Shown here one piece after another: positions 11,479-30,348 of a stretch of 64,000 nt of DNA (within the stretch, counting starts at the first letter, position 1; the number at the start of each line of letters is the position of its first letter). The DNA is taken from sequence record NC_104190.1; one strand, given 5' to 3'. Source of the stretch: Escherichia phage IME178. The position numbers were made by a program, and so were the translations under genes. Below the pieces are notes generated by a model. The model made no database searches and was not told where the DNA came from. It was given only the letters and a program-made list of their open reading frames with translations.

Positions 11479-11510
11479 AGCCGGGTTGCTAGTCGACCTG
11501 GCTTTTATTT
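11479..11510 (+). terminator. rho-independent terminator after nrdD
   Basis: agccgggt ... acctggct stem then TTTTATTTTATTT. Confidence 0.5.
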
Positions 11511-11983: not shown

Positions 11984-12173
11984 GGGTTTAAACTCCGCTT
12001 TGGAAAACGCATTAATACAGTACTGGGAAACTGGTTATAAGGATGGTGTTGAATCCTGCGCTACTATGCTAGAAGTTATTGCTAATACCTTAATGGAGAA
12101 AGGCAATAAAGAATTAGCTGAGCTATTAGACAGTATTGGGCAAAACTTCAGAGAACAGGTGAAAAATGCGTAG
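11952..12173 (+). CDS. hypothetical protein
   Basis: 73-aa ORF; RBS gaggag 8 nt before ATG. Confidence 0.45.
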   Translation: MDFLNQNLPDKGLNSALENALIQYWETGYKDGVESCATMLEVIANTLMEKGNKELAELLDSIGQNFREQVKNA

Positions 12174-12981
12174 ATTAATTATTATTAGCGGTGCAGGTTT
12201 GAGTGTTGAAAGTGGTGTACGAGCTTTTCGTACTGATACTGCTAGTGGTAAAGCATTGTGGGATGATTATGATCTAGAGGAAGTATGTAATATTCATGCC
12301 TTTCGTGGTAATTTTTATCATAAAACCCATATGTTTTACAACAACCGTCGTGAAGAGCTAAAAACTGTTGAACCCAATCTTGCGCATTTGCGTATTGGTG
12401 AATGGTATAAACAATATCCAGGTCAAGTAGTAAACTTGACCACTAACGTTGATGACCTTATTGAGCGTGCTGGCGTTCCACATAGTGACATTCTACACAT
12501 TCACGGATATTTGAAAGAGGTTGTTGTAGCTGATAGCTACAATAGTAGCAATAAACGGATTATTGATGTAGGATACAGTTCTATTGATCCAGATGATTAT
12601 AAATGGGTTAAGCCTAATGTAATCTTCTTTGGAGAGCATGCCCCTGCATACGCAGAAATGTATAATGTTTTTGATGGTATTACCAGTCAAGATATGATCA
12701 TTGTGGTTGGTTGCTCTAACCAAGTAATTAACTTCTACTGGGAATTATTTCCTGTTCTTAATAGGACTGCTGCGAAATTTATGGTAGTTAACTACTATGA
12801 TAGTGCCCTAGCAGCAGAGCCAGGCTATCAAGGTATGACTCGTAGTGAGATGTACCAGTTGGAAGAACGCGGTGTCCCTTACTGGAGTAAAGGTGCGGTA
12901 GATGCTTTCAGTGACCCTGATTTTATTGCTCGTGTAGAAGCTCATTTAGAGGGTAGACCTTATGTGTCAGGAAATAAGTAA
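12166..12981 (+). CDS. Sir2-family (sirtuin-like) NAD-binding protein
   Basis: IIISGAGLSVESGVRAFR (GAGIS-ESGIP-FR signature), TTNVDDL, HG, KPNVIFFGE; no CxxC zinc-ribbon pairs; start overlaps upstream stop. Confidence 0.7.
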   Translation: MRRLIIISGAGLSVESGVRAFRTDTASGKALWDDYDLEEVCNIHAFRGNFYHKTHMFYNNRREELKTVEPNLAHLRIGEWYKQYPGQVVNLTTNVDDLIERAGVPHSDILHIHGYLKEVVVADSYNSSNKRIIDVGYSSIDPDDYKWVKPNVIFFGEHAPAYAEMYNVFDGITSQDMIIVVGCSNQVINFYWELFPVLNRTAAKFMVVNYYDSALAAEPGYQGMTRSEMYQLEERGVPYWSKGAVDAFSDPDFIARVEAHLEGRPYVSGNK

Positions 12982-13474
12982 TACTCCAATTATTTTTCTA
13001 GATATTGATGGGGTGCTCAATTCGAGCATCTCCCACCATCATGCACCTGATAATGAAAAGATTTTCTTTGGGAGTGACTGGGTTTTCAAACCGCTTCTCA
13101 AGGCTTTTCAAGATTTTATTCGTCCTTCCTCGATAATGATTGTTGGGGTATCCTCATGGTTCTCTGTCAGGAATGAGATGGAGAACGTTCAGATTATGAC
13201 CGGATTAGGTCTTATCGATCGTTTTCTTGGTACAACGGATTTTACTGGGGGTGGGCTATCTAGAGGTAATTCTGTTCTCCGTTTCGTTGAAAAGCATAAG
13301 CTCAAACATTGGTGTGTACTTGATGATGCGGGTGCTATGATGTATCAGTACCCAACGGTTATAGTCAACGGTAGGACTGGGATAAATCTTCAGGATTTAA
13401 GAGCTGTTAGCTATATGCTAGAATTTAGCCCAGATCTTGAAATGTGTAAATCCTTACAACAATTTAAGGTGTAA
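12962..13474 (+). CDS. HAD-like hydrolase (putative phosphatase)
   Basis: N-terminal IFLDIDGVLN resembles HAD motif I (DxDGV); 170 aa; overlaps Sir2-like gene by 20 nt. Confidence 0.4.
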   Translation: MCQEISNTPIIFLDIDGVLNSSISHHHAPDNEKIFFGSDWVFKPLLKAFQDFIRPSSIMIVGVSSWFSVRNEMENVQIMTGLGLIDRFLGTTDFTGGGLSRGNSVLRFVEKHKLKHWCVLDDAGAMMYQYPTVIVNGRTGINLQDLRAVSYMLEFSPDLEMCKSLQQFKV

Positions 13475-13486
13475 ATATGTTCAATA

Positions 13487-13903
13487 ATGTATTCTCTAAA
13501 GAAGCTAACCCAGTTTTGGTTAACTTTTGGCGTACTCTCCCAGCTAGTGTATAATGAGGCTATTAACTCTTTGAAAATATGGTGTGAGAATAACGAAATC
13601 TCCTTTGCTTTTAAAGATGATATTGATGAGGCCCCCTGTATTGGTTTAATTGTGCAGGTAGAGGATGGCCTTGAAGAGATTGTGGGCTGGAAAGAGTTAG
13701 ACGAAATGGGCTTAGTTTTTGCGTTAAACTATAAGCTGTTTATGCCTGCTAAGCATCGCCTCGTTGTTAACTATAAAAATAGTGAATCTCCTGGTTTTCA
13801 GGTTAATGAACGTTATGGTTGGTCTTACTTACCGGAAGAAGTAAATGAGGGGATTCAGAAACTTCGACGTTTCGGGTATATGATCCCAGGTTTAACTGCT
13901 TAA
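13487..13903 (+). CDS. hypothetical protein, paralog 1 of tandem pair
   Basis: shares PCIG, EL..MGL..ALN and PGL segments with next ORF; ATG 13477 with RBS aaggtg is in another frame, so N-terminus uncertain. Confidence 0.45.
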   Translation: MYSLKKLTQFWLTFGVLSQLVYNEAINSLKIWCENNEISFAFKDDIDEAPCIGLIVQVEDGLEEIVGWKELDEMGLVFALNYKLFMPAKHRLVVNYKNSESPGFQVNERYGWSYLPEEVNEGIQKLRRFGYMIPGLTA

Positions 13904-13912
13904 GGAGGCAGA

Positions 13913-14302
13913 ATGGAACAAGTATACTGGCGTCAGATTGACCCTAGTTTGGTGAAGCGTGCGGAGAAGCTGCTACAACGTTGGTTGGGGGTAAGACAAG
14001 CCTCCTTCACTTTTCCTGAGCAGCAAACAGATGATCCCTGTATTGGTGTTTTCCTATCCGGCTACGCCGGGGAATGGGAGATGGACTGGAATGAATTGTC
14101 CGCTATGGGTTTAATTGTTGCCCTAAACTTCTCTATATTCCATCCACGTGGTTTGGCCATATGTCGTGTGCCTGATGACGGTTGTTCGCCCCATCTTTTA
14201 CAGGTGGAAGATGATACTTGGGAGTATACTCCGGATATTCTTAAAGAAGCTAAAGAACAATTAAACCGTGTTGGGATCTATGTTCCGGGATTAAATGACT
14301 AA
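13913..14302 (+). CDS. hypothetical protein, paralog 2 of tandem pair
   Basis: 129 aa; RBS aaggagg before ATG; similar to preceding ORF. Confidence 0.5.
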   Translation: MEQVYWRQIDPSLVKRAEKLLQRWLGVRQASFTFPEQQTDDPCIGVFLSGYAGEWEMDWNELSAMGLIVALNFSIFHPRGLAICRVPDDGCSPHLLQVEDDTWEYTPDILKEAKEQLNRVGIYVPGLND

Positions 14303-14328
14303 TGATTTTTATTAGCTGAACTATGATT

Positions 14329-14354
14329 ACCGAGTCATTTTGGCTCGGTTTTAT
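14329..14354 (+). terminator. weak rho-independent terminator
   Basis: accgag-tcattttgg-ctcggt followed by TTTTA. Confidence 0.4.
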
Positions 14355-14396
14355 CCGTACTCAAGACCAATGATAGCACCATCCGGAAAATTTTAC

Positions 14397-14425
14397 TTGC
14401 AGGATGCCCAAAATCTTGATATAAT
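14397..14425 (+). promoter_or_regulatory. T5-type early promoter
   Basis: TTGCAG-17-TATAAT with AT-rich leader TTGAATTGAGAGA. Confidence 0.5.
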
Positions 14426-14925
14426 ATTTATATTGAATTGAGAGACATTAGTAAAAATTGATTTTGCTAATTTTTCTTGTTTACAATCCGCGATACGGAA
14501 CAGTTAGGCTGCCCCATTAAGGGTTGTTTTAACTGTTACATGTTAGTTTTTAAACAAATAGTTAATAGAATACTTAGCGATCTGCGCCCCATAGGAACCC
14601 TGGTAAGGCCTCGAAGCAACCTAGTATGAGGTGGTTGTGAAGTGAGATGGGAGGAGTGAAAAACTACCGAGACGTGATTCTGTAAGTTATATTGCATCTA
14701 GTATGAGCTAGTATATGAAGCATTAGGTGAGCAAATCTGGCTTAGCGGCCATCCTCAAGGATTTGTGCGATATAGCAAAGCAGCAGCGCAGCGTGAAAGT
14801 GGAAGTTGCCACCCCACTTCAGTATTTGCGATTAATTTGTTGAGAAATTGACAGTAACAGTTGTTCTATTCTTTCTGAATAGTCCTAAAGAAAATTTATT
14901 TCATTTCCAACACAGGAGTATTGTT

Positions 14926-20257: not shown

Positions 20258-21228
20258 ATGACTAATGTAAAAGACTTTATTAAACGCTGTCAAGAAGCAT
20301 ATTATCAAGGTATGTCTTTAATCTCTGACGAAGAATATGATCGTCTGATTAAAAGATTTCCATTAGAAGAAGAGATCGGGCCTAAGGGTGATATTCCACA
20401 TCTGTATCGTATGTATTCTTTACAGAAAGTTTATTATAATCGTGGAGATAAACCTCCGTTCAACCCGTTAGGTCAGGTAGAAACTGATAAGTTAGATGGT
20501 TGTGCGATTTCTCTGTTATATATTAATGGAGAATTTGTTCAAGCACTAACTCGTGGTAATGGTATTCTAGGGAATGATGTCACAAGCAACGTAAGATTGC
20601 TGAATATCCCTAAAAAGATTTCCCAAAAAGTACCTACTCAAATCACTGGTGAAGTTCTAATTACAAAAGAAGTAGAAAATAAACGTAACTTTGCCTCTGG
20701 TGCTATTAACCTCAAAGATAGCGATGATTTCGTACAACGTATTGGGGAAGGTGGTTTAATCTTCGTTGCATATGGTATCCAGTGTTCTGCTGAATCTGTA
20801 GGTATTACAGAAGCGTACTTAAAAGATATGCTCTGGCTGGAGAATGAGACTTCTTAACAGTTGTTAATGTGCGTTCCTTCTTTAAGTGGATTCCGACGGA
20901 TGGTAAAGTTGTTCGTATTAATGACAACAACAAATTCTTCCGTGAAGGCTGGACTAATAAATTTCCTCGTGGAGCATTCGCTATTAAAGAAGATGAAGAA
21001 GGCGAGATTACAACTCTTACTAAAGTTGAATGGCAGGTAGGGGCTTCTGGTAAAGTAACTCCAGTTGGTTATTTCGAATCGGTAATTATTGATGATGCTA
21101 CAATTGTTAAGGCGACTCTTAATAACGTTGATTATATTAACTCTCTTGATCTAGAGATCGGTTGCCAGATTCGAGTAATTCGTGCTGGTGGTGTAATCCC
21201 GTGCATAGTAGAGCGAGTATACGATTAA
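20258..21228 (+). CDS. lig: NAD-dependent DNA ligase, adenylation + OB-fold part (subunit A), frame-interrupted
   Basis: KxDG (DKLDG), [14 protein letters not shown]; OB-fold/motif IV segment [11 protein letters not shown]...[11 protein letters not shown] is in a different frame from 20869 (GTG); frame change lies in 20848..20854. Confidence 0.65.
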
Positions 21229-23045: not shown

Positions 23046-24518
23046 ATGACCTTGTTTAACGTGCAAGCTGTAGTGTTGAAGATGCTTCTAGCTTCTGAAC
23101 AGAAGCAAATAGCATTGGAAACATTCTCAAAACTGCATAAAGATCATTTTAATGACGCTTTCTCCTCAATTTACCAAGCCGTCCAGAATTATTATAAAAA
23201 ATATAACACAATGCCGTCCATTGACGCACTGATGCTTGAAGCTAATAGGAACGCCCGCCTTTCTCAAGCTCTAGTCGTCTTAGCTAACACTCAAATTCCA
23301 GAAGTGAGCATGGAACAGGCACTTGAAGTCCTAGAGGCTGAATATACACAGGATTTATTCCTGAAGCTTCTAGAAACAGACGTGCTTCAAGATTTAACAA
23401 TGCTGGATCAGGGAGAAATTCTCAACCGAGTTGCCTCCCTTCACTTAAAATTAGAAGAGAAAGTAACGAATACTGGAAAAGTATTCAACGCAGATAACAT
23501 GCGTATTTTCCAGAGAGAAGAAGATACCAAACTGAACCTAATCGCTCTTGGTATTTGTAATGAGTTTGACGCTCAAATTGGTTTAGCTCGCACAGAAACG
23601 TTACTGCTTGGTGGTTGGCGTGGTACTGGTAAATCCATTATCTGTTCAAACATACAGGTTCAGCAATATTTGAATGGAGATATTGCTCCATACTTCTCAA
23701 TTGAGATGAAAGAACATGAAGTATTTAGACGTAATCTAGCCATGTTAGCTGGTGTATCCGCACTAGCAATGCGTAATAATACTCTAGAAGGTGCAGCTCT
23801 GCTGAGATTAGCCAGAACTAGAGCTAGAATGTTTAATGGCGGTGAAGAGCTTTTCGATAACTTCGTTAAACAGTACACAATGGCTAAGATGAGTGATTTC
23901 TACGATATGGAGAGTAAACTAATAGAAGGGTATGAACTACATACTCCTATGATTATCGTTTATGACCCTGAACTGTCCATTACAACAGTTGATGTAGAAT
24001 TAAATAAATTAGTTGCTAGATATGGTGATAAAGTTACAGTAGCTTTATTGGACTATATTAACCAAACCCGACTTCCAGACTCTAAAACCATTGATATGTA
24101 TGACTGGAAAGAACAGATGGTTGTTAGCTCGTCTTTCAAATCTATCTGCCAGAAACATAACGTGGCTGGCGTAGCTCCTTACCAGATCGATCAAGATGGT
24201 AGAACACGTATGTCAAAGGGTATTCTTGATTCCGCAGACATGGCTGCTAATCTTAATGCTGCAAAAGCTGATAATGGTCAAGGTGCTATTATGTTTGACT
24301 TCGTTAAGACTCGTTCTTCTGATAGCGTGAAGTTTATGCCTAAAATGAACTGGGAAACCTTGCGGATGGATAACACTACCAACCTAGCGATGGAAGATAT
24401 ATCTCAAATGGAAGCTGAGTTCGTTATCCCTATTGAGAAGGATAAGCCGGCTCAACCTAAACGTGCTAAGAAAGACAAAACCGAAAATTCAACAGGTGAA
24501 CAGGCCAGCGATATATGA
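23046..24518 (+). CDS. DnaB-like replicative helicase
   Basis: Walker A GGWRGTGKS, FSIEM (DnaB FSLEM-like), LDYINQTR; start set at ATG 23046 (RBS aaaggaga) instead of 22995. Confidence 0.7.
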   Translation: MTLFNVQAVVLKMLLASEQKQIALETFSKLHKDHFNDAFSSIYQAVQNYYKKYNTMPSIDALMLEANRNARLSQALVVLANTQIPEVSMEQALEVLEAEYTQDLFLKLLETDVLQDLTMLDQGEILNRVASLHLKLEEKVTNTGKVFNADNMRIFQREEDTKLNLIALGICNEFDAQIGLARTETLLLGGWRGTGKSIICSNIQVQQYLNGDIAPYFSIEMKEHEVFRRNLAMLAGVSALAMRNNTLEGAALLRLARTRARMFNGGEELFDNFVKQYTMAKMSDFYDMESKLIEGYELHTPMIIVYDPELSITTVDVELNKLVARYGDKVTVALLDYINQTRLPDSKTIDMYDWKEQMVVSSSFKSICQKHNVAGVAPYQIDQDGRTRMSKGILDSADMAANLNAAKADNGQGAIMFDFVKTRSSDSVKFMPKMNWETLRMDNTTNLAMEDISQMEAEFVIPIEKDKPAQPKRAKKDKTENSTGEQASDI

Positions 24519-25406
24519 GTAGAATAACAGAACTACTTGATCTGAAAGGCATTGAATATAAAGACACAGGTGGGGACATCCTCATCTGTTGTCTCAATCC
24601 AGATCATGACGATAAACACCCAAGTTTGCGTATTGATCCTGAAACAGGTATTATGCACTGCTTGAGTTGTGGCTTCGGTAAAGGTATACCGAGCATTTAC
24701 CATTATTTTAATGAGACTCAGTACCGACAGTCCCCAAGGCTATCGCAAGTACGTAAAAAGATTTCAGAGATTAGGAATGGGTCAACGAATCTTGCAATTC
24801 CTGAATCTGCTTACCTTTTCGAAGGTGATTTCCGAGGTATAAGTTCTAAGACCTTGAAGAAATATTTTGCTTTCCAACACCAAGCAGACTGGGAAGGCAG
24901 AATTGTATTCCCAATCACAGATGCTGTTGGACGCAATATCCTATTTTTGGGTCGTTCTATAAACAGTTCTGCCCCTCCTAAATACTTAGTAAAACCAAAA
25001 CAAGTTTCACCACCAATTTTTCCTGTACGATATAATACCCCAATTCTTATTCTAGTTGAAGGTATCTTTGATATGCTGAATCTAGAGGATAATGGTATAG
25101 ACTATGCTTCTTGTTGCTTCGGTACACATCAGTTTACTTCAGATAACATTGCAGATAAGTTTAGTCCGTATATTATTGCTGGTGTTAAAGTTGTTGTTAT
25201 CTTACTAGATAATGATGCTTCTGGTAATAAAGCTGCACAAGCACTGGCTAAGCTAATTCGTACAAAAAACGCGTTTAACACCTGTAGTTGCTAACTTTCT
25301 TCTGCCTGAAGGTAAAGACCCAGGTGACTTAAGTAAAGAAGAAATTGATATGTTAGCAAAACGTATTGAAATTTTAGTTGCTGAATCGCTTAAAGATTTG
25401 GTATAA
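24515..25406 (+). CDS. DnaG-type DNA primase (zinc finger + TOPRIM), frame-interrupted
   Basis: CHC2 zinc finger CCLNPDHDDKHPSLRID...HCLSCGFGKG; TOPRIM LLDNDASGNKAA; C-terminal VVANFLLPEGKDPGDL lies in +1 frame after A6 run 25263-25268. Confidence 0.7.
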
Positions 25407-30276: not shown

Positions 30277-30348
30277 ATACACATAAATTTGAGAGAGAAA
30301 GTTTCGGATTGATAAGAAAGTCCGAAGCAGAAAAATAAAAAATTTTAG

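Follow-up and report, generated by a model that had tools for sequence, protein, structure and literature searches.

The closest described counterpart of the gene pair analyzed here is found in bacteriophage T5, in which two genes annotated as hypothetical, T5.106 (YP_006934.1; 429 nt, 142 aa) and T5.107 (YP_006935.1; 393 nt, 130 aa), occupy the order T5.105, T5.106, T5.107, rho-independent terminator, T5.108, the last encoding a replication-origin-binding protein. Lindwurm and TUMS_E3 have the same layout as T5, and our search of the literature on T5.106, T5.107, and the Pfam family DUF7415 found no papers. We examined a 64,000-nucleotide stretch of the Escherichia phage IME178 record NC_104190.1 (hereafter, the window), which is ~97% (95–98%) identical to the best Tequintavirus (Demerecviridae) records; by megablast, more than 400 records cover the region, and none is an exact match. 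The gene order of T5 is also that of the window, and two adjacent genes, which we call copy 1 and copy 2, correspond by orthology to T5.106 and T5.107, which belong to the early genes of T5; already annotated as hypothetical proteins, they are not new genes. Copy 2 is 93.8% identical to its counterpart in the T5 genome (tblastn), and copy 1, once a 2-bp deletion has been repaired, has the 142 aa and the N terminus of T5.106; among the sequences compared, the missing dinucleotide CC is absent from copy 1 of the window only.

Paralogy and surroundings of the gene pair

A sequence-only reading of this DNA had proposed that the two ORFs are tandem paralogs of unknown function sharing the blocks PCIG, EL..MGL..ALN, and PGL. 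The pairwise alignment is significant: by BLASTP the ORFs as read (13487..13903 and 13913..14302) share 35/108 identities (32%; E=8e-18), and an intact ortholog of copy 1 shares 40/124 identities with copy 2 (E=3e-21), with all of the proposed blocks inside the alignment of the copies. The resemblance that had been seen between an out-of-frame N terminus of copy 1 and the N terminus of copy 2 is real homology in a slightly different register from the one proposed: residue 17 of the intact ortholog (FWRTLPASLYNEA) pairs with residue 5 of copy 2 (YWRQIDPSLVKRA). Both proteins belong to Pfam DUF7415 (PF24187), with whole-protein scores of 120.8 bits for the intact copy 1 ortholog and 109.7 bits for copy 2 that exceed the gathering threshold of 27 bits, and both match the whole profile of PHROG 2502 (“unknown function”; E=1e-62). 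The copies are thus strongly supported as the products of an old tandem duplication of a DUF7415 protein of ~130–140 aa with an alpha/beta fold. The labels “tail tube protein,” “exonuclease,” and “RNA repair protein” that DUF7415 genes carry in GenBank are unsupported, and for the first two we detected no similarity to any tail-tube or nuclease family or fold.

The surroundings of the pair are conserved in the order nrdD ... Sir2, HAD, copy 1, copy 2, terminator, origin-binding gene, with the pair present in 27/27 IMG/VR loci. In the window, the terminator of nrdD (11479–11503) is followed by three small ORFs, the Sir2-like and HAD_SAK_2-like genes, copy 1, copy 2, and a hairpin (Table 1). The ATG at 13477 stands 5 nt 3' of the AAGGTG motif and 2 nt beyond the stop of the HAD_SAK_2-like gene, and the Lindwurm record has a ribosome-binding site annotated within the equivalent stretch. 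The 65-nt segment that contains the hairpin (14296–14360) has a folding energy of -16.1 kcal/mol (z=-3.15), and a terminator is annotated at the equivalent place in T5 and Lindwurm; the output of a simple terminator pattern scan did not include this hairpin. Together, copy 1 and copy 2 are well supported as the last two cistrons of a tightly packed unit.

We also note variation and annotation issues nearby. The small ORFs T5.103 and T5.104, which lie between the Sir2-like and HAD-like genes, are absent from the window (junction 12962–12981), Lindwurm, and SA001 and are present in T5 (2244–2602 of our locus L006), TUMS_E3, and many other relatives; matches across this junction split in two, with 110–510 extra bases in the relative, so that small accessory ORFs are polymorphic here by insertion or deletion. 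The HAD_SAK_2-like gene frequently appears in public records as “Sir2 (NAD-dependent deacetylase),” which is also the label of PHROG 18062. Downstream of the hairpin, ~500 nt (14354–14847) hold no convincing ORF before the replication-origin-binding gene; T5 has a promoter annotated there, and an Rfam scan of 14250–14900 returned no match. The ORF listed from TTG 14848 has 955 aa, against 928 aa in T5.108, and probably has its true start at a later codon.

Table 1. Positions in the window of the features of the gene pair, its neighbors, and the frame breaks
Feature	Position	Strand	Description and source
Sir2-like protein gene (T5.102 ortholog)	12166..12981	+	Relatives' annotations; NCBIfam Sir2-family deacylase matches below curated cut-offs
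HAD_SAK_2 phosphatase-like gene (T5.105 ortholog)	12962..13474	+	Pfam PF18143, 72.7 bits; T5 annotation
Shine-Dalgarno-like AAGGTG for true copy 1 start	13466..13471	+	Read from sequence
Copy 1 5' part, native frame	13477..13551	+	25 codons, MFNNVFSKEANPVLVNFWRTLPASV, then TAA TGA at 13552–13557; translation
Copy 1 ORF as listed	13487..13903	+	138 aa; ORF list
2-bp deletion (CC missing)	between 13547 and 13548	+	Alignments with Lindwurm, TUMS_E3, SPLA5b, SA001
Copy 1 remainder	13550..13903	+	Residues 26–142 of intact protein plus stop; frame of ORF 13487..13903
Copy 1 core domain	13676..13864	+	Intact-protein residues 68–130; divergent
Copy 2 (T5.107 ortholog)	13913..14302	+	129 aa, intact; ≤95% identical to database proteins
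Copy 2 core domain	14078..14266	+	Residues 56–118; canonical signature W..(L/I)S..GL..(L/I)N..(I/F)HP.GLA; family alignments
Intrinsic-terminator-like hairpin	14329..14353	+	ACCGAGUCA-UUU-UGGCUCGGU, then UUUU; ends transcription unit
DNA ligase A pieces	20258..20857 and 20869..21228		Split by frame break
Uncompensated indel	20848		-A; absent from SPLA5b, SA001, TUMS_E3
Primase as read	24515..25294		Truncated by frame break
Uncompensated indel	25263		+A in A-run; absent from SPLA5b, SA001, TUMS_E3
Uncompensated indel	30336		+A in A-run (AAAAAT-AAAAAA); absent from SPLA5b, SA001, TUMS_E3; no long ORF hit, apparently intergenic
Uncompensated indel	42348		+A; absent from SPLA5b, SA001, TUMS_E3
Uncompensated indel	44375		-T; absent from SPLA5b, SA001, TUMS_E3
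Uncompensated indel	44641		+T; absent from SPLA5b, SA001, TUMS_E3
Uncompensated indel	46750		-A; absent from SPLA5b, SA001, TUMS_E3
Further frame breaks	~51780, ~54840, ~57310		1-nt indels; comparison with SPLA5b only

Frame breaks in copy 1 and across the window

Copy 1 is read in two frames. Residues 1–25 of the relatives' 142-aa proteins are matched by tblastn in frame 1 at 13477..13551, and the rest of the protein lies in the frame of the listed ORF. Relatives have GCTAGCCTGTAT (GCTAG[CC]TGTAT) at the break, and the window has GCTAG--TGTAT, that is, GCTAGTGTAT; restoring CC gives a 142-aa product (MFNNVFSKEANPVLVNFWRTLPASLYNEAINSL...PGLTA), the same length as in the relatives, and in Lindwurm and TUMS_E3 copy 1 is a single 142-codon frame. 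The sequence-only reading had pointed to the strongly initiated ATG at 13477, with its ribosome-binding site, as out of frame with the rest of copy 1, and this ATG is the real start; the relatives' frame begins at the equivalent base. The suggestion in that reading that a gene had been duplicated and that one of the copies carries an indel is likewise borne out, by the duplication at 32% identity together with the 2-bp deletion in copy 1.

We searched for the deletion among relatives at several depths. It is not found in the near-complete relatives SPLA5b, SA001, and TUMS_E3. The 160 phage records matched by a 101-nt query on the deletion site all fall short of 99% identity, and each of the 40 matches listed of these 160 spans 103 nt against the 101 nt of the query; i.e., CC is present. 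An intact 142-aa copy 1 lies directly upstream of copy 2 in 27/27 T5-like IMG/VR loci, and the clusters of copy 1 homologs comprise proteins of 139–142 aa (346 member sequences in the largest), with the CC deletion in none of the 142-aa clusters. Both copies are under purifying selection, with dN/dS of 0.07–0.21 for the repaired copy 1 and 0.03–0.23 for copy 2. Copy 1 has one lesion only, occurring in no comparison sequence, and shows no further decay once repaired. We rejected a pseudogene in the sense of a decaying duplicate, given an unshared lesion, no further lesions, and a dN/dS of 0.08–0.21 in the repaired ORF.

The window contains many other breaks of this kind. Comparing it with the three close genomes SPLA5b, SA001, and TUMS_E3 yields the uncompensated indels listed in Table 1 from 20848 to 46750, all seven of which are run-length changes, the one at 30336 being of the same class as those in coding regions; short queries at 20848 and 25263 found neither indel in the best-matching records listed. 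Searching the window with relatives' ORFs (tblastn) reveals ten frame switches, spread over nine genes that have intact orthologs in the relatives. Comparison with all three genomes places these switches in DUF7415 copy 1, DNA ligase A, the primase, a 685-aa pb4-like fibre, a 949-aa baseplate hub (two switches), and a 204-aa distal tail protein, and comparison with SPLA5b only adds a 300-aa tail protein, a 255-aa neck protein, and a 210-aa head maturation protease. Each tested repair of a coding-region indel gives a full-length ORF: in ligA, 199 and 126 aa become 323 aa; in the primase, 264 codons become 301, stop to stop; and in a tail gene, 367 and 350 become 696.

The density of indels in the window is ~1 per 6 kb. 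A phage could not be viable if its ligase, primase, protease, and baseplate hub were all truncated, and the sequence of the window must therefore contain errors; the nine other frame breaks create a high prior that any single indel in it is an error. More generally, genes that look split or decayed in the window deserve distrust, given its ~10 frame-breaking indels. Because the copy 1 deletion is unique to the window sequence and is accompanied by those nine breaks, its likeliest origin is an error in sequencing or assembly, and both copies would be intact in the real phage.

That the deletion is instead a genuine recent mutation, which would leave copy 1 as a fresh pseudogene or as a 25-aa peptide only, with copy 2 sufficing, we regard as distinctly unlikely. 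Such a reading gains from the loss of family-signature residues in copy 1 (see below), from the loss of a CC dinucleotide, which is atypical of long-homopolymer errors, and from the dispensability of copy 1 in at least one natural lineage, but it has to contend with a deletion seen in no comparison sequence, with a repaired ORF that is full length and free of other decay (dN/dS 0.08–0.21), and with nine other breaks, the ligase, primase, head protease, and baseplate hub among the affected genes, which cannot all be real.

The lineage in question (represented by our protein P0054) is T5-like and was recovered as 7 contigs from independent samples (L047, 2501–2725; L048, 19–243). Its copy 1 is a 74-aa variant in which an in-frame deletion of ~204 nt removes the whole core domain, and its copy 2 is intact. 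The existence of this lineage indicates that loss of copy 1 can occur naturally.

A real deletion would probably leave copy 1 with a nonfunctional product, as the residues replaced by the frame break (1–25) include the first strand, the beginning of helix 1, and a conserved tryptophan. A 138-aa protein translated from the ATG at 13487, with 21 foreign N-terminal residues, is very improbable. In its favor, the frame 13487..13903 is open, with an ATG 15 nt past AAGGTG; against it, initiation would occur first at the better-placed ATG at 13477, the new N terminus lacks the first strand, the beginning of helix 1, and the tryptophan of FWRTL that is present in 31/31 aligned full-length members, and the deletion itself would have to be real. 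Programmed ribosomal frameshifting or other recoding has next to no probability, as nothing speaks for it beyond the need to join two frames for a full protein, every relative encodes the protein in a single frame so that the two-frame arrangement is not conserved, and there is no slippery heptamer at GCTAGTGTA; the comparison with relatives effectively refutes it.

Predicted structure and family anatomy

AlphaFold2 models built with a 45-sequence alignment are confident for copy 2 (pLDDT 95.9, pTM 0.89) and for the intact copy 1 ortholog (pLDDT 89.5), and both show the same order of elements, beta-alpha-beta-beta-beta-alpha-alpha-beta-beta-alpha. The predicted DUF7415 fold has no match among solved structures, and a profile search of PDB sequences gave one match at E=0.17, which we dismissed as chance. 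Furthermore, neither copy has a match in PADLOC or NCBIfam. The 53-position Pfam model matches the N-terminal and C-terminal halves of each protein separately; as regards an internal repeat, a hidden Markov model (HMM) built from 54 stand-alone homologs matches the C-terminal half only, and hhalign gives a probability of 0.06% for the N-terminal half against the C-terminal half, so that neither test confirms a repeat.

Of 161 relatives retrieved by profile from among 1.84 billion representative proteins, most are short and match only profile positions 57–110; in these the core motif reads DWNELS..GL...IN..ILHP.GLA..RDP.TG.S....DG.W.Y. The HMM from stand-alone homologs scores 68.6 bits on copy 2 (residues 56–118) and 27.6 bits on copy 1 (residues 68–130). 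The nearly invariant core residues, defined from 144 representatives, are G, L, N, H-P, G, G, and S. Copy 2 retains all of them (G66, L67, N72, H77-P78, G80, G90, and S92), and copy 1 retains G, L, N, P, and S; where the family has H, G, RDP, and G, it has M, K/H, NYK, and S, respectively. Within the clade of Tequintavirus copy 1 proteins, FMPAKHRLVVNYKTSESP replaces FHPxGLAIxRDPxTGxSP, altering H-P, G-L-A, R-D-P, and G, all of which copy 2 keeps. With the signature residues replaced in one copy and kept in the other, copy 1 appears to be a degenerate partner and copy 2 the canonical one.

Possible roles of DUF7415 in phages

DUF7415 genes recur beside genes of nucleotide metabolism. In three Demerecviridae genera the gene lies 1–2 kb downstream of nrdD, and the arrangement nrdD ... 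DUF7415 ... origin-binding gene is kept in Sugarlandvirus, with two DUF7415 genes, and in Hongcheonvirus, with one that matches copy 2. Among T4-like phages, Jiaodavirus and a Logan contig (L042, 2980–3213; L007, 5001–5252) have a DUF7415 gene of 77–83 aa placed between nrdD and nrdG, and its overlap with both neighbors in Jiaodavirus suggests co-translation with the anaerobic ribonucleotide reductase. The RB43 member (ORF184c) is near nudE and frd.1, and that of Aeh1 (ORF299c) adjoins rnlA, with td and a homolog of T5.105 (HAD_SAK_2) 2 kb away. In addition, the domain is fused to dATP/dGTP pyrophosphohydrolase (PF04447) in 2 representatives, to a thymidylate-kinase-like protein in 1, and to ASCH/DUF3850 in 2; other partners are Cox, DUF551, and a ClpX-type zinc finger. 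The PF04447 and thymidylate-kinase-like fusions are the database proteins P0141, P0138, and P0112, uncommon domain combinations that link DUF7415 to dNTP metabolism.

Guilt by association from these neighborhoods and fusions points to a possible accessory role in nucleotide metabolism. We tentatively propose, as a possibility that falls well short of probable, that DUF7415 is a small noncatalytic binding or accessory module working with phage nucleotide-metabolism enzymes and that the T5 pair combines a canonical and a degenerate subunit. DUF7415 proteins would then act early in infection, together with NrdD/NrdG, dNTP pyrophosphohydrolase, and thymidylate kinase. T5.106 and T5.107 would probably work as a hetero-oligomer of one degenerate and one canonical subunit, a proposal drawn from the family-signature residues that copy 2 has kept and of which copy 1 has lost several. 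A narrower version, in which DUF7415 is a new fold that serves as an accessory or regulatory subunit for NrdD/NrdG especially, and the T5-like pair is heteromeric with T5.107 canonical and T5.106 degenerate, is doubtful.

The main functional rival to a role in nucleotide metabolism is a host-directed effector: DUF7415 proteins might be host-takeover or anti-defence factors that bind a host protein, their positions reflecting slots for accessory genes, which we judge unlikely, if less so than the narrower version above. In P2-like Pseudomonas prophages DUF7415 lies in the late structural operon, between gpL (head completion) and gpX (tail), and in an E. coli P2-like phage it adjoins gpA; these placements are unrelated to ribonucleotide reductase and count against a strict link to nucleotide metabolism.

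Returning to the reading that we favor, we hold with considerable confidence that the pair are the paralogous orthologs of T5.106 and T5.107 and that the frame break is an artefact, whereas a link of the pair to nucleotide metabolism is only tentatively proposed. The locus itself carries little biological weight: the two T5 early genes have been annotated before, though not characterised, and the frameshift is a problem of data quality. The family is of wider interest: widespread in phages, with a confidently predicted fold that lacks a solved relative, and found repeatedly beside nrdD/nrdG, DUF7415 is a reasonable target for work on phage nucleotide metabolism.

The stand-alone DUF7415 proteins of T4-like phages share the core motif with the T5 pair and, like it, are encoded in early regions rich in nucleotide-metabolism genes. 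Unlike the pair, they are single-copy proteins of 75–90 aa that lack the N-terminal half and are 34–39% identical to copy 2 over the core. Most family members retrieved by the profile search are likewise short, consisting of the ~55-aa core only, whereas the T5-type proteins add to it an N-terminal beta-alpha-beta3 half and a C-terminal helix.
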